64,000 nt of DNA from a virus. Positions 1 through 61,795 of this stretch are shown in pieces. The stretch's first letter is position 1, and every line of letters starts with the position of its first letter. The position numbers and the translations under genes are program-made. The notes beneath the pieces are model-generated. The model made no database searches. It saw only the letters and a program-made list of their open reading frames with translations, and was not told the DNA's origin. Location: positions 7,877 through 71,876 of IMG/VR virus record IMGVR_UViG_3300036830_000184; one strand, 5' to 3'.

Positions 1-288
1 GGTGATCTGGCGGTAGCCGCCGCCATCCACCCGATCAATCGAGAGGGAGATGACCTGCGGCGAGCCGTCCGCGTAAGTAATATGCAACGTAATCAACTGC
101 CGTATTTGTTGCAGCCGCCACGACTCTGCCGCCTGCCGGTTGTCCCATTCGAGGGCCGAATAGAGTGCGGATGCCTTATGCGCCCGTGCCCATTCGAGCG
201 CTTCCCTTGGATACAAAATCTTGTCAGGCGACTGAGTTTGTAGCGCCAATAACTCTTCGCGGATCGTGTGTTGAAGCCTCGACGCCAC
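1..288 (-). CDS. Hypothetical protein downstream of the RAMP gene and array A1 (partial, runs off the window)
   Basis: Not in the ORF track because it has no stop inside the window. GTG at 288 follows AAGGGGAACAAA. My translation is VASRLQHTIREELLALQTQSPDKILYPREALEWARAHKASALYSALEWDNRQAAESWRLQQIRQLITLHITYADGSPQVISLSIDRVDGGGYRQIT, open for 96 codons. Confidence 0.75.
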   Translation of the reverse strand, partial: MASRLQHTIREELLALQTQSPDKILYPREALEWARAHKASALYSALEWDNRQAAESWRLQQIRQLITLHITYADGSPQVISLSIDRVDGGGYRQIT

Positions 289-303
289 TTTGTTCCCCTT
301 TGT

Positions 304-612
304 TGCCTGCCACGCCCCACCGAACCAGGTGATGCCCTGCCTACGTCACCCAACCTGCCATGCCATGCCGATCCGGGCCGGAAGCTGATTAGCCGCGCCA
401 AAGAAAGCGCCACCTGCCCAGCCCCCCTTACGGAGCGTAGCCGTGATGAACCATGGTTCGCCCGCGCCGCCTCGATATGCCAGGACAGTCCTCGCCTACG
501 TTGCCGTTGGGTGCCTGCCATGCCGCTCCAGGTTAGACGTTGCGACACCACGCCTGGCGTTGCCCGCCATGCCAGTATTTGCGGAGCGAGGAGACACCTC
601 GCCACGCCTGCC
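304..612 (-). repeat. Pentamer (GGY/CGY-NN) array A1, candidate guide-RNA array
   Basis: The minus strand parses as GGCA GGCGT GGCGA GGTGT CTCCT CGCTC CGCAA ATACT GGCAT | GGCG GGCAA CGCCA GGCGT GGTGT CGCAA CGTCT AACCT GGAGC GGCAT | GGCA GGCAC ... GGCCC GGATC GGCAT GGCAT | GGCA GGTTG GGTGA ... GGTTC GGTGG GGCGT | GGCA GGCAA. It starts 7 nt after the RAMP stop codon. Confidence 0.85.
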
Positions 613-619
613 AAAAGCC

Positions 620-1558
620 TCAGTATTTGAGCACCTTGAACTCGCCCCAGCCGCAGCCGGCGCTCATCTTGCTATCGGGCCGGCCCTCGCCGACGCCAAC
701 CTGCTGGCCCGCTCGTGCCAATAAGTTAACGACATCGTTCGCCGAGAACTGGTCGCCGTCCCACTTCAGGATCAGTTGCGCTTGCCAGCCATCGGCGAAC
801 ATCGGCCGGGCGCGCAGGTCAATGCCGCCGTTGGCGTTGCGGCCGGGGCGGATGTCGCAGCGCGGTTCGCCCTTGGTGATCCGGACCAGACCGGTGCCCT
901 GTTCATCGAAGCCATCGGCCATGACGAACAGCGACATTTTGGCGATTGTCATTTTGAAACCCACCGTGCGGCAAGCCGAAATCAGTGCGTTTCTGAAAGC
1001 AGACGCGGGAATGCCGTCCCAGCCTTCTATCGCTCGGTGTCTGGCGTTCTCATAGTTCTCGTCAAAGTCGCGGGCCTGGCGCGTCTTGCCCTTGCGGCTT
1101 TGGCTGCCGGCTTCCTGGGTTGCGCGGATGGTGTTCTGCACCTTCTGGCTGAACTTATGCAGCACCAAGGGGGTGGTTCCCTCGATCGTGACGCGGGCGA
1201 GCTCGAACTTCGGCGGTGAGATAGAGACGCGCGCTTGTGGCTTCGTTTTGTCGTCGGGATCGGTCAACCCAAGGTCGCGGAGATCGGACCGGATCTCGAC
1301 CGGGGGCCGGCGCTGGCCGGGGATCGGCGCTTTGACCCGCGCGATGATCTCTTGTTCATCCGGGGTAACCCGCCTCGCCGCCGGGCTACCGCGCCGCTTC
1401 GGCGGTAGATAGTCGGTATCGGGCTGCAAGGTCTCATCGACGGTGACGGCAACTACCTTCCGGGGCCGGCCGCGCTTCTTCGGCTGTTGGACCAATAGCG
1501 CGCCTTCGTCTGGGTGCTCGCCGCTTGAGTAAGAATTCCCACGTGATTTCACAGCCAT
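620..1558 (-). CDS. Stand-alone Cas7/RAMP-like protein with a disordered AT-hook N-terminal extension
   Basis: ATG at 1558 with SD AAGGGGAG (track ORF 620-1720). The C-terminal ~195 aa carry RAMP signatures: first strand ARVTIEGTTPLVLH, GIPASAFRNALISA (cf. IPGSSLKGALR), and terminal Gly-rich loop VGVGEGRP...GCGWGEFKV. The N-terminal part has KKRGRPRK. Confidence 0.8.
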   Translation of the reverse strand: MAVKSRGNSYSSGEHPDEGALLVQQPKKRGRPRKVVAVTVDETLQPDTDYLPPKRRGSPAARRVTPDEQEIIARVKAPIPGQRRPPVEIRSDLRDLGLTDPDDKTKPQARVSISPPKFELARVTIEGTTPLVLHKFSQKVQNTIRATQEAGSQSRKGKTRQARDFDENYENARHRAIEGWDGIPASAFRNALISACRTVGFKMTIAKMSLFVMADGFDEQGTGLVRITKGEPRCDIRPGRNANGGIDLRARPMFADGWQAQLILKWDGDQFSANDVVNLLARAGQQVGVGEGRPDSKMSAGCGWGEFKVLKY

Positions 1559-1672: not shown

Positions 1673-1870
1673 ATGCAAATACGCAAAAGTGAGAATGTTG
1701 TTATTCGGCTGCACAAACACGAGTTGGATGTCGTTGTTTTGGCGGCGGCGAGTAAATTCCTATCGCCAACAGCGTGGGTGCGGCATCTGGTTTTGTCGGA
1801 GAGTTTCAAAGTGAAGGAGGAGCTAACGGAAAAGGCAAAACGGACTGACGGTGTCCCTTTGGCATCGTGA
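1673..1870 (+). CDS. Small ribbon-helix-helix-like DNA-binding protein
   Basis: 65 aa with RKSENVVIRL (beta strand) then two helices (ELDVVVLAAA, SPTAWVRHLVL). Divergent from the RAMP gene across an AT-rich spacer. Confidence 0.6.
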   Translation: MQIRKSENVVIRLHKHELDVVVLAAASKFLSPTAWVRHLVLSESFKVKEELTEKAKRTDGVPLAS

Positions 1871-1882
1871 AGGCCCTCCATC

Positions 1883-2558
1883 GGCATGGCAGGTAGGGAC
1901 CGGCACCGTTCGCAACGAGTGATCGGCATGGCAGGCTCGGTTCCGATTTCAACTCACGGCAGGGTTTGAGTGGGCACCGCAGGTCGGGCGCCGGAGGTTT
2001 GGCGCCGGAGGAAAGGTTCGGCGGGCTTGGGTGTCGAGGTCTGGCTTCGACGGCGCGATAGGCTTGGCGGGCTAGGCATGGCCAGGGCGACGAGGCGCGG
2101 TGACTTAGGTTTGGCGGGCGAGGCAATTCGTGGCCTGGGTCGGTCGTGCATCGATAGGTGAGGTGAGGCAGGTGAGGGCGGCGTCCAAGGTAGGGCGTGC
2201 GCGGTGAAGCAACGCAGGCGAGGGGCACCAAGGCATCGCTCGATGACGATGGCCCCCTATGGCATGGCAGGCGAGGCATGGTCACGGCGACGAGGTGCGG
2301 TGACTCGGGTCTGGCAGGCGAGGCGCACTTGGCAGCGATGGTCCGACATGACGGGGCCGGCGGGGCACAGTGGGGATCGACGGGGCAACGCACCGAGAGG
2401 CGCGGCAGGCGAGGCGGAACAAGGTCGATACTGGCTTCTATCGGCTTGACTCGGCAGGCTCCCAAGAACGCGGCGGTCGGAGACAACCGGCCCGTCATGG
2501 CAGGCTAGGATTGGCACGGCCCGGCAACGCCAAACTTGGCGAGGCGTCGGGCTTACGG
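1883..2558 (+). repeat. Pentamer (GGY-NN) array A2
   Basis: Recurrent GGCATGGCAGG / GGCAGGC / GGCGGGC anchors every ~40-60 nt with 5-nt-phased GGY-NN units between them, e.g. GGTGA GGTGA GGCA GGTGA. Overlapping ORFs are Arg/Gly/Ala-rich shadows. Confidence 0.85.
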
Positions 2559-2559
2559 T

Positions 2560-2590
2560 GGCGGGGGATCTTCGGGTCTCTCGCCTTTCC
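2560..2590 (+). terminator. Hairpin/terminator closing array A2
   Basis: GGCGGGGGATC-TTCG-GGTCTCTCGCC followed by TTTCC: an 11-bp stem including G-U pairs and a C(UUCG)G tetraloop. Confidence 0.75.
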
Positions 2591-4343: not shown

Positions 4344-4768
4344 TGGAATTTCTTCAAGCGGTTGTCCCGACCGTGCTGACAATCGCCGGTGCGGTGGCCA
4401 GCGGCACGATCGCGGTGTTTGTGCCCAAGCTGGTGGGCGCGCTCGCGGCCCACACGGGCATCACCCTGACCGAAAATCAGCGGCAGACGGTGTTGGATGC
4501 GGTGCAGACGGCGGCCGGCGTGTTGGAAACCCACCTCGATAACAGCATGATCCGGCGCGAGCACATCAATGCGACCGGTGCGGTTGTGCGCGAGCAAGCC
4601 GGCGCGGTGCTGGCGGCGGTGCCCGACTCGGCAAAGGCTTTCGGCCTGAATGTGCCGGACATCGCGCGAATGATCGTCGGCAAGGTCGACACGGCCAATC
4701 ACCCGCCGCTGCTTGCGCCCTCGGTGGTGACGCCGATCCCCCCTTCATTGCCGAAGGTGCCCACATGA
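4340..4768 (+). CDS. Putative holin-like membrane protein
   Basis: Dual Met start, N-terminal TM segment, then an amphipathic region (LTENQRQTVLDAVQTAAG). Confidence 0.45.
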   Translation: MMEFLQAVVPTVLTIAGAVASGTIAVFVPKLVGALAAHTGITLTENQRQTVLDAVQTAAGVLETHLDNSMIRREHINATGAVVREQAGAVLAAVPDSAKAFGLNVPDIARMIVGKVDTANHPPLLAPSVVTPIPPSLPKVPT

Positions 4769-4941
4769 GGCTGATTATTCTGGTCATCCTGTTGGTGATC
4801 GTCTTCGGCGGGGTCGGGGGTTACTACGGTCCGGGGTGGTTCGGGGGTGGCCCCGGCTGGCGGCCGGTCTATGGCGGCGGCGGCCTCGGATTGCTCGTCC
4901 TGATCCTGCTGATCCTGTGGCTGGCCGGGGTGCTGCGCTAG
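4765..4941 (+). CDS. Small Gly-rich two-TM membrane protein
   Basis: Below the track cutoff. ATGA overlap with the upstream stop. Translation MRLIILVILLVIVFGGVGGYYGPGWFGGGPGWRPVYGGGGLGLLVLILLILWLAGVLR. Confidence 0.65.
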   Translation: MRLIILVILLVIVFGGVGGYYGPGWFGGGPGWRPVYGGGGLGLLVLILLILWLAGVLR

Positions 4942-5115
4942 GGCTTATTGAGACGCGGCCAGGGCCGGCTCAATACCTTTTCCATGGCTTCCCGTTCGAG
5001 CGGACATTGCTGGTCGTAGACGCGCCACGCTTGGATGTTCCGCTCGCCGATCGCCCGGATCTTGCGTTGTTTCCGGGCGACCATCCGCTCTAGGGCCTCA
5101 CCGCCCCAAGCGTCC

Positions 5116-6999
5116 TCATCCGCCATCGGCCGGGGGCTGCGCGGGTGGGGCCGTGTCGAGGGTCTTGAACCGAGCGCGCGCCGCCTTCTGCACCGCCTCG
5201 CAGAGTTCCGGCGCGGCGATCTTCAGGGTCGCCAAGTGGCGCACGACCGATTGGTTCTTCTCCAGGGCCGCCAGGGCAACGGCCGTTTTGCAGGCGGCGA
5301 TGTCACGCATCAGCCCGTCGTGGATTTCTTGCGGTGTTGGCATGGGCTTTTTGGTCAGGGCCTGTTGCTTGGCCTCCAGCAAAGTCTTGGCGGCGAGACG
5401 GTATTTCGGCGGGAAGTCGCGATAGATCGGCTCGTTGAGTTCGATCAGCCGGTTGAACTCATCCGGCGTGGCCACGGTGACCAGCACCTGACCGAAGCGT
5501 TCGTTCCAAGCGTCCCATCCGGCCTTGTTCGTGGTGGCCGGCGGAGCGAGTTGCAGCGGATCGGCCTCGGCGGCATCCGGTTGCGACTCGGGTTCGGGCT
5601 CGGGCTCGGGCGGCAGCCGTTCGTCAGTCGGTGGTTCCTGGATCGGCGGCCGCGGCGCCATGATCAGCATCGCCTCATGGCTGATACGGCCGGCAGCTTG
5701 GGCGTCCTCAATGTTAGCCTGGCGGATCAGTTCCACGTCGCCGGGGAAGCAGCTTGAGAGCGCCCGCATGAAGGCCCGCGCGTATTCGACGGGGTCGGTG
5801 TAACGCTCGCCGGTAAAGCCATCGCCCTCGATCGGTGAGCCGTCTGGGTCCACCAACCATGCCGAGAAAGCCGGAGGCTGACCGATCTGCACCTCGGGTT
5901 GGCTCGGCTCCGGGGGCTCGGGCGGCGGTGGTGACGCGGCAGCCGGCGGCGGCACGTCGGTTTTCGGCTTAGTGACGGCGGCGCGCGGCGGTTTCACGAC
6001 AACCGGCTCCGGTTTCACCTCTTCTCCCGGCGGCGTCTCCGGGTCGTTGGCCACCGAGCGCAGCCCGAAGGTCGCCGTCGTGTCGGTCTCGTCCTCGACC
6101 AGCGGGCCGTTCTCTTGGTAGCCGCCATCGGCAATGGAGGCGTCGCCGTCGATCACCGAACCGAAATCGATGGTGCCGCGATCCTGCGACTCATCGAGCG
6201 CCAGCACGCCGGCCAGTTCGACCGACTTCGGCAGCCACGCCGCCAAGGAACGGAACACGGTTTTGCCGCCCATCTTGCGTTCGTATTTGACCCACGGCGC
6301 CTCGGTCCAGGTCCCTGGCAACTTCCACCCGTTCTTCTCGGCCGCCTCTTTGGCCGCGAGCGCCGAGCGGAAGCCCTGACTGCCGTTGCGGATCTTGAGC
6401 ACGTCAGCCCACGGCATGACATGGAACGCCTGACCGGACCTTAGCGACGCGTGGGCATAAGCGAACATCGGCATTTCTTCGTCCGGCCGTGCCCGCTCGG
6501 GCCGATGGCTCAACACCGCGTTGGTGCCGTATTCAAACTTGAAGCGGCCGTTGTCGTATTCGTCTCTGTAGGCCACGTCGGCGTGGACGCTGGTCACCTG
6601 GCCCGAGCGATAGCTGAGATCGAGCAAGCCCGGATACCCGAAGATCAACTGCACCTCGTAGCCGATCAACTCCCGCTCGCGCTTCTGCTTGTTCCATTTG
6701 TATTTGCCGAAGGGGATCAGGAACGCGTGCTGCAATGGGGTGTTCGGTTCGAGGCCCACCTCGGAACAGGTGAGCATGGCACCGAGCACCGAGCGCATTG
6801 AGCATTGCAGCAGAAGCGGGGCTTTGGAGGTTGCCTGCACAAAAGTGCGGAGCATCCGCTGCGGCTTCACGTGGCTCGGGGCCGATGCCTTGATCCGCTC
6901 CATCAACTCGGCGGACTGGAAAGCCTCACCCAGGTTGCGGCAATCCTTCAGGGTCTTGAATTCCGCCCGGCTCGGTGCGGTTAGCTGTTGGCCGCTCAT
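5116..6999 (-). CDS. recT: RecT-family ssDNA annealing protein with long C-terminal extension
   Basis: LLQCSMRSVLGAMLTCSEVGLEPN..HAFLIPF..VQLIFGYPGLLDLSYRSGQV..MGGKTVFRSLAAWLPKSVE. Pro-rich linker and extra domains follow aa ~290. Confidence 0.85.
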   Translation of the reverse strand: MSGQQLTAPSRAEFKTLKDCRNLGEAFQSAELMERIKASAPSHVKPQRMLRTFVQATSKAPLLLQCSMRSVLGAMLTCSEVGLEPNTPLQHAFLIPFGKYKWNKQKRERELIGYEVQLIFGYPGLLDLSYRSGQVTSVHADVAYRDEYDNGRFKFEYGTNAVLSHRPERARPDEEMPMFAYAHASLRSGQAFHVMPWADVLKIRNGSQGFRSALAAKEAAEKNGWKLPGTWTEAPWVKYERKMGGKTVFRSLAAWLPKSVELAGVLALDESQDRGTIDFGSVIDGDASIADGGYQENGPLVEDETDTTATFGLRSVANDPETPPGEEVKPEPVVVKPPRAAVTKPKTDVPPPAAASPPPPEPPEPSQPEVQIGQPPAFSAWLVDPDGSPIEGDGFTGERYTDPVEYARAFMRALSSCFPGDVELIRQANIEDAQAAGRISHEAMLIMAPRPPIQEPPTDERLPPEPEPEPESQPDAAEADPLQLAPPATTNKAGWDAWNERFGQVLVTVATPDEFNRLIELNEPIYRDFPPKYRLAAKTLLEAKQQALTKKPMPTPQEIHDGLMRDIAACKTAVALAALEKNQSVVRHLATLKIAAPELCEAVQKAARARFKTLDTAPPAQPPADGG

Positions 7000-12376: not shown

Positions 12377-13043
12377 CGGTCTCTCCCTCTGCGCCCTCGG
12401 GGATTAAAGACAGGTTGTGGGGCGCGAATTTCGTGATCAGGCCACGGAGGGTGCGTAGCGCGGCGATGATCTGTTGCGGTGTGGGGTGGGCCTGGGTGCC
12501 GTCATTGTAGGAGCCGTAACAGGATCGGATGGCCCGGCGCACCGTCTCCGGGTCGGACCATTCGGCGGCGCGGTCGCTAGAGTCGGAGGCCCAACCGAGG
12601 CGCACCGCCATTTCAGCGGCGCGAATGTCCGTCTTGAGCAAGTGGGCAAAGGCCGCGGGGTGATAGCGCCGAACCAGCGTCAAGGTGGCCGCGGCCCCTC
12701 GATCGGTGGGCTCAACGCGCAGCCAGCGGGCGATCCAGTTGCGGCCGTCGATATCCACCGGCGCGGTGGCGGCGGCCTCGGGCAGTGCATCGGACTCGGG
12801 GAGGTGCTGTTGACGCCAGCGGTTGAGGCGTTGGCGGATGTCGGCTTCCCGGAACCACTCCAGGTCGATCAGAACGTAGTTCGCGCTCTCTTCGTTGAAG
12901 GCGGCGAGCGGATAGGATTGGGAGAGGCTTGGCGCCATGATCTGCGTCTTGGCGTCGGCCTCGTCGGCGGAGTCATTGTTCGGCAGCCGGGACATGATCC
13001 ATAGCAGCCAGGTCCGAACCTCTTTGGGGGTTGCGCGTCTCAC
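12309..13043 (-). CDS. Hypothetical protein (replication module)
   Basis: 244 aa ORF directly downstream of the replication-like gene. Confidence 0.55.
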   Translation of the reverse strand: MRRATPKEVRTWLLWIMSRLPNNDSADEADAKTQIMAPSLSQSYPLAAFNEESANYVLIDLEWFREADIRQRLNRWRQQHLPESDALPEAAATAPVDIDGRNWIARWLRVEPTDRGAAATLTLVRRYHPAAFAHLLKTDIRAAEMAVRLGWASDSSDRAAEWSDPETVRRAIRSCYGSYNDGTQAHPTPQQIIAALRTLRGLITKFAPHNLSLIPEGAEGETDEYRNWDSKTAGDLRGETRLLG

Positions 13044-13058
13044 GTTGGCCGGTCCAGA

Positions 13059-13568
13059 TCAGTCGTCACCACCACCGACATAACCGAGGAGCGGTAAGCC
13101 TGGGTCCCGTGAAGCCACCACGCCGTCCAAGATGATCGGTCCCCGGCCGGCTTCTTCGGCTTCGCGCATGAGGAGTTCGAGCGCACCATTTCTAAATGTC
13201 TCCCGTGGTTTCTGGCGGTCGGCATAAGTGCCTTCCAGCAGGCGCACGAAAGATTTGGGTTGAAGCAGAAAATCGAAATCCGCCCGCCATCCCCGTGCGC
13301 CGCAGCAGAATGACGAATTACCCACAGCCGCGACGGCTTCCAAGACGCCATCCAGGCCCACTTCGCGGATACGGGTGGCCAAGTGGGCGCTCCTGGCGAT
13401 GGTCATCATCCGGATGCTCGGAAGACCGGCCTGTTTGGCCATGGTGTTCCAGGCGTCGGCGATTTGCCGCTCGACGGCATTCATCCGAATGTGATTAAAT
13501 AATTTTGTGACACGGTTCATTTCTCCAAGTACGTCAATATTTGGAGAAACACACTTGTCATCAGCCAT
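13059..13568 (-). CDS. Phage replication-initiator-like C-terminal domain protein
   Basis: AWN..LPSIRMMTIARSAHLATRIRE..SSFCCG..GWRADFDFLLQPKSFVRLLEGTY. Confidence 0.65.
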   Translation of the reverse strand: MADDKCVSPNIDVLGEMNRVTKLFNHIRMNAVERQIADAWNTMAKQAGLPSIRMMTIARSAHLATRIREVGLDGVLEAVAAVGNSSFCCGARGWRADFDFLLQPKSFVRLLEGTYADRQKPRETFRNGALELLMREAEEAGRGPIILDGVVASRDPGLPLLGYVGGGDD

Positions 13569-13708
13569 TTAGGCGGGATATGCACGCCTAAGCGGACGCT
13601 AAATGCGGTCTCCTGGGTCGCGGTTAGTAAGCCCGTGAACAGCCAACAACTTGTTACCGAGGAGATGGCCTTGCACGCCCCTCCTCGGTCCTCTTCTTTA
13701 CAGCGAGG

Positions 13709-13981
13709 TTACTCCCCACCCAAGAGGCTAATCGTCAGCCGTGGGATCGGGAGATCGAATGCCTGGAAGTAGGCCAAGGTCATCGGGTCATAGAAGGCCG
13801 CACGCTCACGCAGCTTCTTCTCACCGCCTTGGGTCTCGATCATCACCGCGGTATCACGGCGTCCGAGTCGGGCTTTGTAGACGATGACCGAAATGTCCCG
13901 GACCCGCTCTTGATCGATCGGGGGGAACAGGTCGGCCGCCTTCGTTCCCCTGACAGGGCCTCGCGATTTTGCTTTTGCCAT
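13709..13981 (-). CDS. Hypothetical protein
   Basis: 90 aa ORF starting next to an AT-rich divergent region. Confidence 0.5.
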   Translation of the reverse strand: MAKAKSRGPVRGTKAADLFPPIDQERVRDISVIVYKARLGRRDTAVMIETQGGEKKLRERAAFYDPMTLAYFQAFDLPIPRLTISLLGGE

Positions 13982-14145
13982 AAGCAGGACTCGTAAATCC
14001 AGGGACCGAAACCGTCAATGGAAAATCCGATACTTTTATTGTGATTTGTTGGCCTCGTTGGCGGCGTTGATGATTGCCAAAGGCTCACTCTTGGGTCGCG
14101 ACGCGCGGTAACGCTGGGCCAGTCAGGCAGGCGGGGGCACTCATT

Positions 14146-14358
14146 ATGGCTGATCTATTTGCCGGCGAGCCGGTGCCGCTTGGTGAGCAAATCCGCGAAA
14201 TCGAACGTGAGCTTGAGACCCGCCGGGCGGTCTATCCGCGTTGGGTCCAGGCCGGGCGGCTATCCTTTGATGTGGCCAAACGGCGGGTGCTGATCATGGA
14301 GGCGGTTCTGGCCGAGTTGAAGGGCAGGCAGGGCGGGGCGGATCACGGGGCGGTTTGA
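14146..14358 (+). CDS. Small phage hypothetical protein embedded in array A3
   Basis: EQIREIERELETRRAVYPRWVQAGRL..RRVLIMEAVLAEL; ATG at 14146. Confidence 0.7.
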   Translation: MADLFAGEPVPLGEQIREIERELETRRAVYPRWVQAGRLSFDVAKRRVLIMEAVLAELKGRQGGADHGAV

Positions 14359-15705
14359 TCCCGGCACGGCTGCGCAGGCAGTCCAACATCCAGGCGGGAA
14401 TACCCGCCGTCACGGCTGGTTTGAGGTGGATGGCGACCCGCGGCAACGCAAGGCCAGGGGTGGCGCTGCCGGTGTGGTCTATCTGTTAGTGGCTAGGCGC
14501 GATGGGCATGGCAGGTCACGCAGGGCAGGTGTGTTCCGGATTGGTCTTCGCTTTGCAACGCCAGGCTGATCGGGGCAACGCAGGCTGCCCGAGGCGAGGT
14601 TGAGCGAGGCACCGAGCGCCAGGCAGGTAAGGTGGGCGAGGCACCGCGCTGCGCATCGAGGTAAATCCTTGCGTGGCAGGCTATTCGAGGCACGTGCGGC
14701 TACGCCATCCGAGGCGTCGCTAGGTTAAGCGAGGCGGGTTTGGTTGGTGGGGCGGGGCTTCTCTGGGTTCGCTCGGCGGGTGCGGCGAGGATATCAGGGC
14801 TGCGTTGGGTTCGCTTGGCGGGTTTGGTGAGGATGACGGGGCTGCGTTGGCGGGGTAGCGATGGCCGGCATTGCTCGGAAAGTCATCGCACCGCTTATCT
14901 GGGCGTCGCAGGCTGGGTCGCTTTAGGCGCGAAGAGCTAGGGACGGCTAGGCACGGCAGGCGTGGATAGGCGTGATTGGCTTGGCAACGGAGGCAAGGCA
15001 GGCGTGGAACGGTTGGCTCTTCGTGGTTCCGGACGTGAGGTGTTTCATTTCGCGGTGAGGCAGGCTGATCGGACCGGGGCATCGTAGGCGTGGCGGGTGA
15101 CGTTGACCGTCGCGAGTTTGGGCGACGCATGGTGAGGCCGGGCAGGTCGGGTGTCGCGACCTTGCGATGGAAAGGACTGGTTTGGCAGGTCCGGCAACGT
15201 TGGCAACGCCTCGTAGGCTAGGCAGGTTCGGTTGGTGGCGTGGGCAACGCAGCGACCGTAGGTTATGGCGGGCGAGGCAGGGTGTCGCTTCTCCTGTCCA
15301 GGCCGGAAAGGCAGGCTAGGCATGGCCGAATTTGGCCGGGCTTCACTGGGTTTGGCTGGGCCGGCAACGTTGGCGTCTCAACGCTGGGTCAGGCATGGCT
15401 CGCAGGCTAATCGGCACTTCGGTGCCCAATACCCACGAGGGATCAACCCTCGGTCACGGCAGGCACGGCCACGCGACTCCGCTTCTGGCCAGTCAAGGTG
15501 AGGCAGGCGTGGTTTGGATGGCAGCGCCACGCTCCGCAAGGAACGGCAGGCAGGGCATCGCAACGCGCTTCGGGGTAAGGATCTGGCCAGGCAGGCAATC
15601 GGCACTTCGGTGCCCAACACCCATGAGGGGATCAACCCTCAGTCACGGCAGGCAAGGCGTGGCAGGGGCGGCGACGCGTTTCGCGGCCTGAACTGGCCCG
15701 GCTAG
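14323..15705 (+). repeat. Pentamer (GGY-NN) array A3, the largest (~1.4 kb)
   Basis: More than 20 GGCAGG/GGCGGG/CGCAGG anchors at ~40-60 nt spacing with 5-nt-phased units, e.g. GGCTA GGCAC GGCA GGCGT GGATA GGCGT. No credible CDS. One more unit lies upstream at 14082-14134. Confidence 0.85.
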
Positions 15706-15714
15706 GGGCTGACA

Positions 15715-15748
15715 GGGGAGAGTCCGGGGTCCAACTCGGACCCTCCCC
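15715..15748. terminator. Hairpin between array A3 and the convergent GH5 gene
   Basis: GGGGAGAGTCCGGG-GTCCAA-CTCGGACCCTCCCC inverted repeat. Confidence 0.6.
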
Positions 15749-15802
15749 ATCCCGCCTATAATTTTGTGCGGCCTTCACCGCAGTTAACGATTGCGGCTCG
15801 GC

Positions 15803-18043
15803 TCACGGCAACAATGCGGTGTCGGCTCTGACCTTCGCCAAGGCCGTCACGGCGCCCGTCAGCACGCCATTGATAGCATCGATCTCGGCCTGAACCGAAG
15901 CCACGGTCACGCCGGTCGGGGGTGGCGGAGGCGGCGGAGGTGGCGTGACGCCGATCGGGTTGGCCGCAGCGGTGGCCGAGATCAGCCCGGCAATCAGTTG
16001 GCCGTAGGGTGTGATCTGGCCGGCATCGGTGACCATCTGGTCGCCTTGCTCGTCCGGATTGAAGGCCCACGCGCAATAGGACATGCCGGAGGCGCCCACC
16101 ACCTGGCAAACTTGCGTCCCGTTGGCATCGACCGCACCGCCGGTTGTGGAGTTGCCGAACTCGCCGATCACCACGGGCACCAGACCATCCAGCGAGGTGA
16201 TCGATTGCGCGCCGGCCACACCGGAGGCACCGCCGACCGAGCCTTGCAGGCCAGCCTTGATCGTCGGGATATCGGTGGAGAAGTTGGTTACCCACCCATA
16301 GTAGTGAAGGTCCCAACAAATGTTATACATGGTTGCATAGAGCGCGGGCGTCATCGGCCCTTTGCCGTCGTAACCCGTCGCCTGGCTGCCCACGAGGCCC
16401 GGATTGCCGCCGGAGGGTTCCTCCATGAACACCAGCGCAAAGCTGCCGGCGCCCCGGATGGCGTCATAGATCGCCTTTTCCTGCGTCGCGATGCCGGCCA
16501 GATTGTTGCCGTTGCCGGGCTCGTTGAAGGTGCCGAAGGCCACGTAGGGGTTGGCCTTGTAGGCCGCCGCCATGGCCGCATACCACTTGACCTCGGCGGC
16601 AAGCTGGCTCCCGGTGAGCGGCGGCGCGCTGATCCCGGTGTGATCCTCGAAGATCATCAGGGTCTGTTGCGCGGTCGCCCATTGGATGAAGGCGGCGTAG
16701 GTCGACGGGTCAGAATAGGCCCGATTGGCAATCCGCAGGATGCGTGTGCCGGGGAACATCGTGCCGGTCTTGGCGCTGACCGTGTCCATCTGGTCTTGGT
16801 TGAGGTTGAAGCCGCCGGCCGCGAGGACCGACCCATCCGGGCGCAGGATCTTGGCACCGGAGACCTTGAAGAAGCCGGCTGGCGTCGGGTTGGTGCCGGG
16901 TGGGGGCGGGGGCGGCGTCACGCCACCGGGGAGTGGGCTCGTCGTGGTGGCACCGGACCAGCTTGACCCGAGCCACGAATACCAACTCCCGGCCGTGTTC
17001 TGTTGCCAGATGACGCCCTTCTCCAGGGCCATGAGGGTGACGTTTTTGGTCGTCGTGTCGTTGACGTTGTTGCGCGCGATGGTGCCGGCCGGGGTGATCG
17101 TCCAGACATTGCCGGTGGCGTCGGTGATCGAGCCGGTGCCGGGGGTGATGCGGGTGTCGTCGGGCGAGGGTGTGATGGTCACGGGTGGGGTGACTCCTGT
17201 TCCAGATGCGGTCTGCGCCGCCGCCCAATCCCAGATCGGCTTGCCGGCGGGGAGCGGGCAGTAACTGTCCCAGACATCATGGCCCTTGTTCGGATCGAAC
17301 AGTAGCCGGAAGGCGGAGGTGCCCGCCTGCGCACCGGCTGGCCCGCTGACCGTGGGGGCGCCGTTGGCGAAGTGCGCCCACACGGCCAGGTCCCAATTCG
17401 GCGGACTGGTGGTGTCACCGGCGCCATGCACGGCAAAGATCGGCACGCCGGTGATGGTCTCGAACTGCGCCGCGGTCGGCCCCACGCCGTAGCCGTTGCG
17501 CTCGATCACGCCGGCCATGGGAATGAAGGCGCAGAAGGTCCGGCTGCGGGTGCCGTTTTTGGTGTTGTGATCCAGCGCCTGCGCCCATGAGCCGATGCCG
17601 CCGAGCGAGGCCCCGCCGACCACGAGGGCATCCGGGTCGGCCCCGAGATTGGTCACGGCATACTGCGCACAGAGCGCGACCGAGTCCTCGTTGGCGTCGT
17701 CGTTGGGCGGGGTCCAGCCGCCGAAGTTCTGCTCCACGTCGCTGCCGGTGGTCTGATCGCAGGCCGGAACCAAGATCAACCAGGGGTAGGCGCCCATGAA
17801 GGCGGAGTTGTTGAACCACGCATCGGCCTGGCAGGCTTGGGGTAGCGCGTCATCACCATTATACGCCCGGTTGCCTTCTTCGTCCTCATGCTCCCAGACG
17901 AGGCAGCGATACTTGCCACCTGCAACCCATCCCGGAGGAGCCAGCACGTAGAAGATCATCTTCTGCCCGGACGGCAGGGTGGGACCCGTCGGGAGTTGGA
18001 AGCGGGTCCACTTGCCCGGAACGAGTGAGGTGGGATTGGTCAT
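15803..18043 (-). CDS. Alpha/beta-hydrolase (esterase) plus GH5 glycoside hydrolase fusion
   Basis: N-domain GASLGG nucleophile elbow, HGAGD and GHDVW (Ser-Asp-His triad). Pro/Thr linkers. C-domain FNEP, DLHYY, VVIGEFG and CAWAF, matching GH5 motifs. Confidence 0.82.
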   Translation of the reverse strand: MTNPTSLVPGKWTRFQLPTGPTLPSGQKMIFYVLAPPGWVAGGKYRCLVWEHEDEEGNRAYNGDDALPQACQADAWFNNSAFMGAYPWLILVPACDQTTGSDVEQNFGGWTPPNDDANEDSVALCAQYAVTNLGADPDALVVGGASLGGIGSWAQALDHNTKNGTRSRTFCAFIPMAGVIERNGYGVGPTAAQFETITGVPIFAVHGAGDTTSPPNWDLAVWAHFANGAPTVSGPAGAQAGTSAFRLLFDPNKGHDVWDSYCPLPAGKPIWDWAAAQTASGTGVTPPVTITPSPDDTRITPGTGSITDATGNVWTITPAGTIARNNVNDTTTKNVTLMALEKGVIWQQNTAGSWYSWLGSSWSGATTTSPLPGGVTPPPPPPGTNPTPAGFFKVSGAKILRPDGSVLAAGGFNLNQDQMDTVSAKTGTMFPGTRILRIANRAYSDPSTYAAFIQWATAQQTLMIFEDHTGISAPPLTGSQLAAEVKWYAAMAAAYKANPYVAFGTFNEPGNGNNLAGIATQEKAIYDAIRGAGSFALVFMEEPSGGNPGLVGSQATGYDGKGPMTPALYATMYNICWDLHYYGWVTNFSTDIPTIKAGLQGSVGGASGVAGAQSITSLDGLVPVVIGEFGNSTTGGAVDANGTQVCQVVGASGMSYCAWAFNPDEQGDQMVTDAGQITPYGQLIAGLISATAAANPIGVTPPPPPPPPPTGVTVASVQAEIDAINGVLTGAVTALAKVRADTALLP

Positions 18044-18343
18044 AAAGCGCACGCTCCCCGAAAAGTGAGGCGCATAGCGCAAAGCCAGGACAACCGCCAG
18101 TGAAAGGGTGGGAAAGTTACGCTACCGCCGCCGAAGAGGCCAAATTCACTCAGGCATGGGAGAGGACTCGGCCTTGCCTTCGGCGGCGACAGGTGCCCAC
18201 CATCAGGAGCGGGGTGATCGGACCGTGAAATCCGATAACCAAGCCATCGTTTCGACTGCACCGAAAGAGGCTTAATGGTTGACGAAAAACGTATAGACCA
18301 TTCTGAAGTCCCGCAAGTCCCCGCGAAGTCACGGGTGGTTTAG

Positions 18344-18826
18344 ATGACGCGGATGAACTGGAAAGCGTCCGGCGAACGCCTCGCGGCACGACGAGCCGCC
18401 GTCACCGAAGCATCCAAGAACCGGGTTGAGTCAATCGTCCGCGCCGCTGAACGTAAGTTGGCACCGGAATTGGGCGACCTGACACAACCGAAGAAGGTGC
18501 GGAAGCCGAGGAAGCCGAGGAAGCCGACGAAGCCTCGCGTGCCACAGAAACAGCGGGAAGTCAGGAAGTATGAGGCGTGGGTGCAAAGCCTTCGGGATAG
18601 GGATGCACGTTCTAAAAACCCGATAGTCAATATCGCCACAGCCAGCATTTCGGTGCCAGAGGCGACGCCGGCGAACGAAGCTGGGCGAGCCTATGCGCAA
18701 TATCGAGCCGAGATGGAGCGTCAAGGACGCGAGCCGGTGCCATCCGGCGCCTGGATTTGCAAATGGTGGCAGAGACAAGAACGTCGGAAGCAAAGAAAAC
18801 AATCAGCCATGGAGGGCCAAAAATAG
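18344..18826 (+). CDS. Basic hypothetical protein
   Basis: 160 aa, Lys/Arg-rich with tandem RKP repeats. Confidence 0.55.
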   Translation: MTRMNWKASGERLAARRAAVTEASKNRVESIVRAAERKLAPELGDLTQPKKVRKPRKPRKPTKPRVPQKQREVRKYEAWVQSLRDRDARSKNPIVNIATASISVPEATPANEAGRAYAQYRAEMERQGREPVPSGAWICKWWQRQERRKQRKQSAMEGQK

Positions 18827-19929
18827 GCTGCCCTTCGTCGCGCCATCAGACATTGGTCTGAGATGCCCCCAAGATTGCCGCACCCGCGGAACACAGGACC
18901 GCACCGGCACCGGAGTAGCGACTTAGAGGAAACAGTGCCGCCCCCCGCGTAGCAGGGTAGCGCCCGGCTTGATCGGGCTCCCTCGCTCTTACGTCAAGCG
19001 CCACTGACCACCCGGATCACCATCCTGCCCCTCGCGCGGGTGCCTAAGACGGCCACTGCAATTCGAGGAAGGGACCTAGACCGGGCGGAGCTATGTCTCC
19101 ATGGAGGCTACCATCGAGCAACCTCTCACTCTCATAAGCAAATCATCCTATAAAGAGTCCCGCGTAGCGGTCCGTATCGCGGGTGCAGCGGAGCGCAGCG
19201 ATCAGGTTGGGAGCGGTTAGCGGCCCCCGCTGATAGGACTGTGGCACCGGGGATCTTGATATCCCCGGATCGGAAGCGGGACGTGCTTACCTCTCAAGGG
19301 CACCAGTTCGCTACGCGAGCCTGGAGCCCGAGCACTCACATGGTTTGTGAAGCTAATATGATCACAAGGAAAAAACCGCATGGAGACCGGGCACCGACCG
19401 ATCAGGTGAGAGTCTACGCGCACGTGAGTCTTATCTTAACAAGAGATAACGCGACTCGTCGTTGGGAAATCGAATTGCATTAAACGTATCTGATTTTGGA
19501 GTTTGCAAAATGGCGCAGCGCCTTCAATGCAGGTCGCTGACCGGCTGGGTTTATTACCTCGCGGTGGGCGCGATCATCGCCATCGAGCCGGCGCTCTGGC
19601 CCAAGCATCATTGTTATGTCAGCCTCAGCCTGCCCCGGAGCGCGGTATCGCGGGTTTTGGTCTGCGAGGGGACAGCGACGATCACCGCGCGCTATTACGA
19701 TCTGGTCCCGGTTTGCGACTTACCGAGGCGCCCATGGTGAGCATGTTTCTGTTGCGGCTGCTGCCGATCGAGTGGGCGCACACGCTGGCGATCTGGTCGA
19801 TCCGGACGGGGTTTTACCGCGTCGGCCTCTGGGTTGATTGGCTCGCCGTGCGGGTGGTGGTTGGTCTGCTGTTGGCCTACGCCAAGCCGGGGATGTGGCT
19901 GAAGGCAAAATGGCGGGGAGGGCGATAGG

Positions 19930-36106: not shown

Positions 36107-36124
36107 CTGGCGAGGGGCGCGTCC

Positions 36125-36864
36125 TCGCCTAGCCAACCAAGAGCCGCCTGCGTTGCCGTTCCTGGCGAAGAGACACCAAACCAGTCCGTGCCTGCGTTGC
36201 AACGCCCGGCCTAGTTCCGCCACCCCGAGCCAGTCCACGCCTGCCAAGAGATACCTCGCCAGTCGACCCAACCTTAATCGGCCTGCCGAGCGACGCCCTG
36301 CCAATCTTACGTTGCCCTACCTGCCGAGCGGCGCCCCACCCCGCCGGGCCATTTCAACCTTGGTCTGCCTAGCCTGCCGCGCGAGCCGGACCTAGCCGAG
36401 AGTATCCGAGCCAACCTTGCCTGCCGAGCCCTAGTCAACCTAACGCGCCATCGACCCCGAACCTAACCTGCCGGGCCAAGATCCACCCATCACGCCGGGC
36501 CATCGTGGCCATCGTGGCCAAACCTGCCACCGCCGCCACTCCCCGCCACTCTCACGATACGAGTCGGGCCATCCAGGCGAAGCCTGCCCAATCATGCCGC
36601 ACCGACCCAAATGCGCGATGCTCTACGTCGCCACGCCTGCCGGGCCAGGATCTGCGGTGCCAAGCGGGTGTCACCTCACCATTCGACGCGACGCCTGCGG
36701 GACCGATCCGCGATCTGATTGGCCAGAACGATCCGCCCGCTCCCAGCCTGCCTCACCCTGATCGACGCGGCCTCGCGAAACCACCGAAACCGCCAATGCC
36801 AAACCTGCCGCGCGGTGGGCTGCGACGCCCCTGAAGCGTTGCTGATCCTGCCTTTCCATGACGC
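36125..36864 (-). repeat. Pentamer (GGY-NN) array A4
   Basis: CCTGC(C/G) anchors (GCAGG on minus) at 36147, 36191, 36240, 36282, 36320, 36373, 36420, 36467, 36523, 36583, 36636, 36694, 36747, 36804 and 36847, spaced 38-60 nt. Hairpin GGCGAGG..CCTCGCC at ~36109-36129. Confidence 0.85.
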
Positions 36865-38188: not shown

Positions 38189-38792
38189 TGGCGTCTAAGC
38201 ACCCCGGCGATGACGGCGATTGGTGCCAGGGCTCGGCCTCGCGGCCGCGGATGACGATCAACGAGCGCATCTGCACCTTGGTGAACGTCGTCGGCCCAGC
38301 CACGATCGCGGCGATGCGGGCGGAAGACGAGTTCCTGGCCTCGGTGCCGAACACCCCACCCGACACCAAGCGCTACACCGACCGGCGGAAGATCCCCGGC
38401 CGCGAGCGGATGATGCCGTAGTATAAGAGGAGTGGTCTGATGGCTGACCAAGACGATCCGAGCACCTTCGCCTACGTCCCGCCAGGCGCCAGCCAAGCCT
38501 TCGGGCAGAAGCCGGTCCGCCGTCTATCCCCGATGTTCAGCCCGGATATGCGCGCGACCATCCGCGACAAGGCGCTGGAACAGGGCGGCGGCGCGATCGA
38601 CCCTATGGCCGGCAGCAAGCCAGGCTCCTGAATTGTGGCCGTGATCACCACCGGAAGCGTTCCGAAGGCTATTGGCGGAGTCGCAATGGCTAAAACGGGC
38701 AAAAAGCGGCCAAAAACGGGCAAAAAGGCTGCTAAGGCTGCAAAAAAGGAAGCTAAACCGGGTTTTCGGACGTAATCGGGGGTCGATAGGCC

Positions 38793-48990: not shown

Positions 48991-49470
48991 TTAGGCTTCC
49001 TCGGTGGCGTCAACCGCCGGTGCCACGCCATACTGCATGATGTTCATGCACCGGCCGGCGCGGGCTGGGGTCTCCTTGAACCATAGCGAGGCCCGCCCGG
49101 CAGCCGCGGCGGCGATGTAGTCTTTGCGCTCGATGGCGGCGATCATGTCGTGGAAATCGAGCAGCCCCTGCAAACCGAGTTGGTGGCGCATGTTGACGAC
49201 AGCGCGCTGGCGGATGTCATCCAGGCCGACGAACCACGGTCGCGGCGATAGCTCGCGCTCGTAGCGGTTTAGGTCATTGTCAGCGAGCGCGTAGCTTTCC
49301 GCCGAGGACAGCCCGCCGGGCCAATCCAGCCGCCGGCCGATGCCGATGGTGGGGTAGCCGATCAGGGTTGAGCCTTTGGTGATCGGCTTGCCGGTCGCGT
49401 CGTCATAGACCTGCGGCTCTAGCTTCTCGTCCCGGACAAGCTCGCGCGTCATAGCTTCGCGGTCGAACAT
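48991..49470 (-). CDS. Lysozyme/endolysin (T4-like, GH24)
   Basis: LVRDEK..VYDDATG..GYPTIGIGR..RQRAVVNM..SLWFKETPARA. Confidence 0.85.
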   Translation of the reverse strand: MFDREAMTRELVRDEKLEPQVYDDATGKPITKGSTLIGYPTIGIGRRLDWPGGLSSAESYALADNDLNRYERELSPRPWFVGLDDIRQRAVVNMRHQLGLQGLLDFHDMIAAIERKDYIAAAAAGRASLWFKETPARAGRCMNIMQYGVAPAVDATEEA

Positions 49471-49499: not shown

Positions 49500-49780
49500 C
49501 TGCGCCACCTTGCCGAGTCGCACCGAGCCAGTGACTCGGAGCCTAGAGATGCTACGCGTTGCCCGCCGAGCGATGCGGCTCGTTGAGGCACGAAGCACAC
49601 CTTGCCTAGCCTGCCCTGCCTTAGCCGGCCCTGCCGGACCCACCTGGAGCCGCCGGGATGTGCCTGCCCTACCAGTCGTACGGAGCCGTGAAGTGCTCCG
49701 ATGCGCGTTACCTGCCGCGCACAGCAGTGCCGAGTGATGCGAAGGTCCGCCGACGAAGCGATCCTTGCCTGCCATGCCAT
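49500..49780 (-). repeat. Pentamer array A6 upstream of the lysozyme gene
   Basis: Minus strand: hairpin GTCCC..GGGAC, then GGCAT GGCA GGCAA GGATC..., with ~5 segments delimited by GGCAGG/GGCGGG. Confidence 0.8.
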
Positions 49781-49842
49781 TGTCCCGCCGATAGGGACGG
49801 TCTAAAGCCTATGGCCGCCCACCAATCGGGGAAAATCAATTT

Positions 49843-58614: not shown

Positions 58615-58720
58615 TGATCCGATCGGCGTGGCGGTTCATGGTAACGCTGGGCTTTGCGGGGCAGCGTGCCCCCTGGCGTCGAAGAACCGATGAGCACGGG
58701 GCGGGGAGACTCGCTCCGTG
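58605..58720 (+). ncRNA. Putative single-unit pentamer small RNA A9
   Basis: 5' stem GATCGG/CCGATC; GGCGT GGCGG TTCAT GGTAA CGCTG GGCTT TGCGG GGCAG CGTGC CCCCT GGCGT CGAAG; 3' hairpin CACGGGGCGGG-GAGA-CTCGCTCCGTG. Confidence 0.6.
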
Positions 58721-61122: not shown

Positions 61123-61439
61123 CTTCCGTGATCATCTCCAACACGCCGCCGTTCGGGGCGCTGACCAATCAAGCCGTCGCCGATCTATTCACGGTCAATC
61201 AGGCGATCGTGCGCCTGCAAGCCGCGGTAGCTTCGGCCGCGAGCGGTTACGCCGGCACCGCCGGCACCGAGTATGAGGGCAATGGCACCAACTTTGGCGT
61301 CGTCGCGTCCAGCGATCCGGGCGCGCAAGGGGCGGCCTACTCCTTCGCCCTGCTCACCCTCGCCAATGCCTGGACAACCTTTTGGAATGCCGCTCTGGCC
61401 TCGATCGAGGAACTAGACAATGGCGTCATTTCGCCCTGA
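61119..61439 (+). CDS. Hypothetical protein
   Basis: 106 aa, ATGA-coupled to the upstream gene. Confidence 0.6.
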   Translation: MTSVIISNTPPFGALTNQAVADLFTVNQAIVRLQAAVASAASGYAGTAGTEYEGNGTNFGVVASSDPGAQGAAYSFALLTLANAWTTFWNAALASIEELDNGVISP

Positions 61440-61534
61440 CGAAATTCTGATTTTCCAGGAAGCATTTTACCACCGTAAGGTCTCTGCGGCGCGGCTGCTC
61501 TCGGTTGTCTCCGCGGTTCTGGGTGTCGAGAGAA

Positions 61535-61795
61535 CGGCACGGCTGATCTCGGCAGGCTTGGCTTCCCCACGCTTATCATGGTTTCGCGTCGCAGCGCGCA
61601 CAGCCCCACGGCTCGGCAGGCACGGCGGACAGGGGCGGGGAACGCACTGTGAGGCGCGGCTTGGCAGGCAGGGCATAGTAGGGCTCGGCTTCTCTAGGCT
61701 GGACTTGGCGGGCGAAAACGTCTTAGGATCGGTTTGTTCCAGTTGAGATGTTGAGGGCGGTTGGGCGGCGGTAGGGGAGACCTTGCCGCCGTTTT
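61535..61795 (+). repeat. Pentamer array A10 with terminator
   Basis: Anchors GGCAGG at 61551, 61615 and 61663 and GGCGGG at 61707; ends in CGGCGGTAGG-GGAGA-CCTTGCCGCCG-TTTT. Confidence 0.78.

Follow-up and report, generated by a model that had tools for sequence, protein, structure and literature searches.

The DNA considered here, called the window throughout, is a stretch of 64,000 nucleotides (nt) that corresponds to bases 7877-71876 of the IMG/VR virus record IMGVR_UViG_3300036830_000184, a 71,876-bp record rated complete that represents an uncultured soil phage. Directly behind a small phage gene of 70 amino acids (aa), the window contains a G-rich array of short units, which we term A3 (14359-15714, plus strand), and at a distance of 12.8 kb the phage carries vipr (623-1558, minus strand), the gene of a predicted Cas7-like RAMP protein. 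VIPR systems are described, in the available parts of a recent preprint, as a lone phage RAMP protein, Vipr, encoded beside an accessory gene and flanked by non-coding arrays of YNNGG units (10.64898/2026.04.26.720920). A3 is written in the same grammar as the arrays that lie beside vipr in this phage, and by analogy with the published systems it is probably an orphan array of the vrRNA type that supplies guides to the phage's own, distantly encoded Vipr.

Array A3 and its boundaries

A3 is non-coding. At 1356 nt it is the largest array of this genome (the others measure 180-741 nt), and it is composed of 40% G and 26% C, with a sense-strand GC skew of +0.2 to +0.3. The longest open reading frames (ORFs) within it comprise 119 aa on the plus strand and 136 aa on the minus strand, four of its ORFs were without a Pfam match reaching the curated cut-off, and the G+C period-3 signal is only 0.1-0.4 in ten consecutive 450-nt intervals covering 14251-15900, compared to a median of 7.0 over the whole window. 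Autocorrelation of G, GG and GGC in A3 peaks at lags 5, 9-10, 14 and 19, and the array thus has a period near 4.75 (4.75-5 nt), made up of 5-nt steps and frequent 4-nt steps. Against 500 dinucleotide-preserving shuffles, 14359-15714 is exceptional by every measure applied, as no shuffle attained the observed number of GGCAGG anchors (19; shuffle mean 2.9, maximum 9), of GGC (109; mean 70.6) or of in-phase GG runs of at least three (17; mean 4.9), or the power at period 4.4-5.3 (16.6; mean 3.6, maximum 10.5). In the arrays of this phage, spacings from one GGY to the next equal 0 or -1 modulo 5 in 83% of cases, compared to about 42% in shuffles; when A3 is shuffled, each residue class accounts for about 20%.

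A sequence-only reading of this DNA had described, at 14051-15748, the largest orphan pentamer array, 12 kb from the RAMP gene, with about 1.4 kb devoid of a credible coding sequence, more than 20 anchor-delimited segments and a closing hairpin. Our results agree with this description: its interval holds 22 copies of GGCAGG (shuffle mean 3.3), the period-5 scan suggested as a check places A3 above all shuffles, and the hairpin folds as claimed, with 15700-15760 yielding -32.5 kcal/mol (z -1.9). The hairpin is not followed by a T-run and is not called by a terminator scan of 13600-16000, which returned one terminator-like site, inside the array at 15019-15040, and fewer than in shuffles; a sigma-70 promoter scan of the same interval found no site. 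Searches for known RNAs and repeats were likewise negative: the window had no Rfam match at gathering scores, nor did 13950-15800 when E values up to 5 were allowed, ARAGORN found no tRNA, none of 50,697 phage records was matched by 13000-17000 in blastn, and no CRISPR-type repeat family was present in 13900-15900 or detected by Tandem Repeats Finder in the window. Embedded in A3 are two copies, about 94% identical, of a module consisting of a UUCG-loop hairpin and a second hairpin. The module has no third copy in the window, its exact first 21 nt are absent from the viral contigs searched, and it has no match in Rfam, indicating that it is not a described ribozyme or RNA family.

The 70-aa gene preceding A3 matches phrog_19667 (E 1.3e-7) and has a 44%-identical homolog in another viral contig (L002), and its last codons, which hold GGCAGGCAGGGC, overlap the first A3 anchors. 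As no array follows the homolog in L002, the gene and the array do not form a unit. The sequence-only reading was correct in treating this gene as real and as running into the array, and was also correct on two smaller points: a further unit with one anchor (at 14125) precedes the gene, and the 13-mer GGTAACGCTGGGC at 14107, within that unit, recurs at 58640, these being its only two occurrences (0.12 expected). The second occurrence lies in a tract of eight pentamers, five of which have GG in register, and this tract may be a solo guide unit.

Vipr and the arrays associated with it

The product of vipr consists of a basic N-terminal extension of about 110 aa followed by a core of about 200 aa. 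An AlphaFold (AF2) model built from 34 homologs has a mean predicted local distance difference test (pLDDT) score of 75, with low confidence in the extension. Foldseek searches of this model against the PDB returned 54 matches at E <= 0.001, and the matches listed are all CRISPR RAMPs (Csm3, Cmr4, Cmr1 and type VII Cas7), in keeping with the RAMP-type protein called from the sequence. When a profile of the 34 homologs was compared with PDB sequences, the sole match was the Vipr of Escherichia phage SUSP1 (36pp_D), at a weak score (E 0.065, 15.8 bits); the alignment pairs the C-terminal G-loops (GVGEGRP here, GVGDWRP in SUSP1) and an N-terminal strand (GTTPLVLHK and GTRPFLSHA). The available text of the structure preprint (.720927) names H17, R138, D177, W178 and R179 as the GGY-holding residues of SUSP1 Vipr. 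H17, R138, D177 and R179 correspond to H134, R251, E291 and R293 here, which are invariant or nearly so in the family. The model and alignments thus predict that this protein is a Cas7-like RAMP with the G-loop of Vipr. We found 1686 homologs, of which the 120 listed contain no Pfam domain and those named are hypothetical proteins; homologs annotated as hypothetical occur in cyanophage Cy-LDV1 (51% identity), 27 Mycobacterium phage records and 5 Gordonia phage records. A peptide-pattern search of viral contigs for close relatives of this Vipr found none. A putative accessory gene of 201 aa (phrog_15946) is present downstream of vipr, and a homolog of this vap-like gene directly follows vipr in 29 of 49 genome loci.

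These 49 loci, drawn from bacterial genomes and metagenome-assembled genomes of many phyla, each encode a Vipr homolog, and across them the Vipr-type protein is tied to pentamer arrays. Counting only arrays at most 1.5 kb from the gene, 44 loci have one; in two others (L182 and L190) the array begins within the last ~110 nt of the gene and is missed by this rule, giving 44-46 of 49 overall. In L213 the array is 4.9 kb from the vipr homolog, and L220 and L223 have none. As a control, loci around the terminase gene showed an array signal in 4 of 57 (786 kb). No array was found near the terminase at power >10 in these 57 loci, apart from seven weak single scan intervals, which indicates that the arrays are not part of the conserved backbone of this phage lineage. 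In relatives the junction of GGCA with the next GG (GGCA/GG) delimits units, as the sequence-only reading had proposed for its anchors, and these units measure 4+5n nt; in three of the relatives (L188, L187 and L207), GGCA is followed by 9-11 GGYNN units, resulting in units of 49, 54 or 59 nt.

A three-anchor pattern with variable gaps, scanned over viral contigs, gave mostly chance matches, and also recovered a dozen unrelated phage contigs with far cleaner arrays, in which 0.3-1.2 kb of (GGYNN)n lies directly 3' of a stop codon. In several of these the gene before the array ends in a motif that also ends the vipr gene of this phage. One candidate from the scan (L062) was rejected, being an AT-rich stretch with an unrelated tandem repeat of 9 nt. 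In a 95.8-kb phage (L102 1900-2830; record G005, 4664-5564) the 0.9-kb (NNGGY)n array is very clean, and tblastn over the 6.3-kb locus detected no homology to this Vipr in the gene that precedes it.

A period-5 scan of the whole virus record located seven arrays, A0 to A6 (Table 1), which total 4229 nt or 5.9% of the genome and contain at least 60 distinct anchor-delimited units. All seven have in common the core GGCAGGC, present in 34 copies and enriched 55-fold over both strands of the remaining genome, and every array is G-rich on the strand of its adjacent genes. Arrays flank vipr on its strand, with A1 and A0 downstream and A2 across the promoter region; A3 is not adjacent. A same-strand neighboring gene with family or homolog support is found for A0, A1, A2, A3 and A5, and the neighbors of A4 and A6 are ORFs without matches. 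A3 has no exact repeat of more than 14 nt in common with the other arrays, so that, apart from the scaffold, its variable parts are all different. The anchor pattern matched five separate arrays in this genome and one locus apiece in five other virus records that bear VIPR, and full period-5 scans of three complete VIPR phages (G001, G003 and G004) revealed one array each, adjoining vipr; two weak period-5 signals in G001 were rejected as ordinary coding sequence. Within this small sample of three complete records scanned fully, seven array loci in one genome are unusual.

Table 1. Features of the VIPR-like system and of the A3 locus, in window coordinates except where marked
Feature	Position	Strand	Basis and remarks
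Array A0	genome 6850-7490, just outside window	-	follows vap-like gene
vap-like accessory gene, 201 aa (5' part)	1-288	-	extends past first base of window; phrog_15946; ORF at L228 7559-8164; then A0
Array A1	290-620	-	between vipr and vap-like gene; six GGCAGG anchors; one strict four-YNNGG run (329-310)
vipr, predicted Cas7-like RAMP protein, 312 aa	623-1558	-	homologs, AF2 model, Foldseek, profile match to SUSP1 Vipr
Array A2	1860-2560	+	opposite side of divergent promoter region from vipr; after 65-aa ORF (1673-1870), before tail-collar gene at 2659
Single anchor unit in leader of 70-aa gene	14082-14134	+	anchor at 14125; holds 13-mer recurring at 58640
70-aa phage gene	14146-14358	+	phrog_19667 match; homolog in L002
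Array A3, probable orphan vrRNA-type array	14359-15714	+	non-coding, pentamer period, anchor count; 19 GGCAGG anchors
Two-hairpin module, first copy, 60 nt	15409-15469	+	repeat and folding; ends at anchor, inside A3
Two-hairpin module, second copy	15597-15658	+	repeat and folding; ends at anchor, inside A3
G+C-rich hairpin closing A3	15715-15748	.	folding; opposite 3' end of convergent 759-aa gene (15803-18082, -)
Orphan array A4	36120-36860	-	strongest period-5 signal of genome
Orphan array A5	49520-49800	-	in leader of lysozyme-like gene (48991-49470, -)
Eight-pentamer tract	58625-58664	+	in 100-nt spacer between two structural genes; shares 13-mer with 14107
Small orphan array A6	61540-61720	+	overlapped by tail of ORF 61420-61746

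The phage genes present include GcrA-like, RecT-like, terminase, portal and tail-fiber genes, and an O-like/DnaD-like gene resembling a replication initiator lies near A3 at 13059-13568. The RecT-like annealing protein (5116-6999, minus strand) is 627 aa long, about twice the usual length, and its family match is limited to residues 27-297. The ORF overlapping A6 (108 aa) has no family match and its second half is the array itself, which means that the array extends into coding sequence unless the gene is in fact shorter than the ORF. The ~680 nt at 18830-19500, between genes ending at 18826 and starting near 19503, lack a long ORF, give a weak period-3 signal and include several hairpin-like runs; they do not form an array, and Rfam matches none of this sequence at gathering scores. 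A candidate packaging site is the tandem repeat at 38688-38727, which has ~3.8 copies of a 10-nt unit (consensus GGCAAAAAGCG, 11 letters) and precedes the large terminase gene (39102) by about 400 nt.

Register, strain variation and the role of A3

In the published systems, to the extent set out in the accessible text, the NN letters of the guide pair with double-stranded DNA with every third base skipped, and the complex silences rival phages and satellites (10.64898/2026.04.26.720920). If A3 acts in the same manner, its RNA would, by analogy to SUSP1, be made as part of the operon transcript and cleaved to short RNAs, with cutting expected at the GGCA/GG anchors, and would then be loaded in trans on Vipr. 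Each 5-nt unit would be bound by one Vipr protomer that sequesters GGY, leaving the two NN bases available for pairing with double-stranded DNA, one target base in three being skipped, and the complex would silence genes of rival phages, of satellites or of their VIPR systems. A search with seven 9-unit guides under the 1-nt-skip rule against 2.37 Mb of local sequence, including the phage's own genome, found nothing at 16 of 18 letters and six matches at 15 of 18, compared to eight for unit-shuffled guides. The sequence-only reading had placed the locus in such a guide-array frame, and its RAMP protein and its pentamer arrays delimited by GGCA/GG do match the VIPR preprints in the portions available; the action in trans that it inferred has a published parallel in orphan vrRNAs that use a Vipr made elsewhere, and the guide role itself is the part that we can call probable.

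Several observations weigh against a guide role for A3. The grammar of the arrays is that of the family, with a loose register in vipr-adjacent arrays and orphans alike. Taking as in frame a unit whose anchor-to-anchor length is 4 modulo 5, this phage has 5 of 39 units in frame (2 of 12 in A3), compared to 81 of 122 in 20 relatives picked for strong arrays. At a fixed phase the share of GG starts at 0.66 and has dropped to about 0.2 at the fourth unit, while in relatives it is 0.5-0.63 over nine units. Consecutive GGY spacings are in register in 53% of cases here and in 79% in eight relatives; those shifted by -1 account for 30% and 15%, respectively, and those off both registers for 17% and 6%. 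A step of 4 nt is GGCA in 53 of 82 cases in this phage compared to 68 of 79 in relatives. A3 is without a strict run of four YNNGG units, of which the whole genome contains five, three of them in A0 and A1; the best tract of A3 (15314-15363) has GG at the start of eight of ten units. Judged from these sequences, a complex with one Vipr protomer per 5 nt would be expected to lose step on much of the A3 RNA. The sequence match to SUSP1 Vipr is also weak (E 0.065), and W178 of SUSP1 is replaced by a glycine here (G292). The claim in the sequence-only reading that A3 is the main guide reservoir stands with regard to size only: the register is eroded, a strict four-YNNGG run is lacking and few units are in frame, so that its roughly 20 segments are candidate guides.

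This loose register is what would be expected if A3 were a decaying relic, one of several former vrRNA arrays that recombination had dispersed and that now drift without a function. Comparison of strains provides evidence on both sides of this idea, which we consider unlikely. Among the sequencing runs listed for this DNA none is recorded as RNA, and three soil-metagenome DNA runs matched with small shares (0.20, 0.13 and 0.08); over 12500-17500, runs X1 and X2 gave short identical pieces and X3 gave variant contigs, with no contig spanning the whole array. The X3 strain is ~96% identical to this phage, and one 667-nt contig at depth 3, covering 14366-15015, carries 27 substitutions (23 listed), lacks 31 nt (14875-14905) and has an insertion of ~43 letters near 14622. 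Such unit-sized insertions and deletions between near-identical strains would suit a relic, as would a substitution rate in A3 (27 in 623 nt, ~4%) much like that of the flanking genes (11 in 272, 13 in 356 and 29 in 460). However, G, at 42% of the bases covered, was hit by only 3 of the 23 listed substitutions (P = 0.003), and GG, at 31%, by only 2 (P = 0.014), while all five at the Y of GGY keep a pyrimidine there. This sparing of G, seen in one low-depth contig, fits selection on the scaffold letters and would be unexpected under free drift. The periodicity and anchor counts far above every shuffle also argue against decay, as does the same style in arrays beside an intact vipr, and 4.2 kb of dead DNA at seven loci would be unlikely in a head-limited genome of 72 kb.

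Orphan arrays could instead act as decoys, producing RNAs that soak up or misdirect the Vipr of a rival or steer the phage's own Vipr to harmless sites. There is precedent in a further preprint, the available portion of which reports that solo vrRNAs of SUSP1 satellites redirect the VIPR of the helper to decoy sites and that orphan vrRNAs target the VIPR of rivals (10.64898/2026.10.15.759431), and short, irregular units with a very high anchor density, on arrays occupying 5.9% of the genome, would suit binding without precise targeting. This phage, however, possesses intact vipr and vap-like genes with equally irregular arrays beside them, suggesting that irregularity is general in this phage rather than particular to the orphans, and we regard a decoy role as improbable. 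A function unrelated to VIPR, whether as a Rho-excluding G-rich, C-poor spacer, an R-loop origin or an array binding a protein at each half-turn of DNA, is very improbable indeed: the sense-strand GC skew and the nearby O-like/DnaD-like gene are in its favor, but it would not account for the link between arrays and a Cas7-like gene in 44-46 of 49 loci, for the GGCA junctions and GGY-NN grammar common to those loci, or for seven copies in operons of unrelated function. Other candidates were discarded, including a sigma-54 promoter array (unsuitable spacing), a Chi-like array (orientation tracks genes, not genome ends), a CRISPR-Cas array (a period of 5 nt and no 25-40-nt repeat family in 13900-15900) and, given the array-bearing related loci, a TRAP- or CsrA-type protein sponge, G-quadruplex beads and an R-loop origin.

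A guide array serving the phage's own Vipr is therefore the reading we prefer for A3. A broader proposal, that VIPR has in this phage been turned from a one-locus module into a genome-wide guide system, is possible and is put forward tentatively. The arrays would then ride on the vipr, tail-fiber and lysis operons and on a small operon beside the replication genes, and different guide sets would be issued at different times of infection. The frequent -1 junctions would in that case produce guides much shorter than 9-16 units, or sponge RNAs for rival Vipr. The phage adds a distant Vipr clade, found also in cyanophage Cy-LDV1 and in Mycobacterium and Gordonia phages, and its array DNA, which far exceeds in amount that of the three other complete VIPR phages scanned in full, is distributed genome-wide and in a looser register. 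Should the loose units be loaded and active, the guide rules are wider than published; if they are inactive, this genome illustrates the decay of such arrays. In either event, annotators should expect VIPR arrays distant from vipr.

Comparison with known systems

According to the accessible text of the 2026 preprints, a VIPR array has at least four YNNGG units, published vrRNAs contain 9-16 of them with "internal degeneracy" allowed, and the vrRNA is processed to RNAs of ~50-100 nt that are bound by Vipr; the experiments rest mainly on two related type II systems. Measured against the original description as far as it is available (10.64898/2026.04.26.720920), the phage examined here agrees in encoding a lone Cas7-like protein of small size with a G-loop, whose gene is followed directly by a small accessory gene; in its flanking arrays, which are non-coding, lie on the strand of the gene and consist of 5-nt GGY-NN units; in units that abut with a 1-nt offset; and in the absence of cas genes or CRISPR repeats from what was seen in the window. 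That preprint recognizes seven VIPR types, including "staggered" arrays in which the end of one vrRNA is the start of the next with a 1-nt overlap, and the 4-nt GGCA/GG step of this Vipr clade fits such an overlap. Compared to what is published in those sources, some differences are evident. This Vipr is only distantly similar to that of the type II exemplar SUSP1 (E 0.065) and bears the N-terminal extension of ~110 aa, its arrays lack a conserved structured 3' tail, the units are shorter and far less regular than 9-16 YNNGG, and arrays are found at seven loci and not only around vipr.

Repeats located away from any vipr and expected to use a Vipr made elsewhere have a counterpart in the solo or orphan vrRNAs of satellites and of VIPR-null SUSP1-like phages, hundreds of orphan vrRNAs being reported from phages that lost vipr (10.64898/2026.10.15.759431, from the part available). 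Those are described there as one or two vrRNAs in vipr-less elements, at sites where vipr-vap1 was deleted, whereas the orphans here are arrays of up to ~20 units, located in four or five other operons of a genome that retains vipr. A separate preprint, as far as its available text goes, recovered 99 VIPR-like clusters from intergenic DNA at large (10.64898/2026.10.21.760802).

Similarity to CRISPR arrays with a Cas7-family backbone (type III Csm3/Cmr4 and type VII Cas7) is limited to the construction of units from a fixed and a variable part. Unlike CRISPR arrays, the arrays described here have no 25-40-nt direct repeats or contiguous spacers and have a period of 5 nt rather than 60-79 nt, and no Cas1/Cas2, Cas10 or other cas genes are seen in the annotated parts of the window. 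Taken together, VIPR as set out in the 2026 preprints, to the extent of the text available, is most likely the already described kind of system to which this locus belongs, with A3 as a further example.

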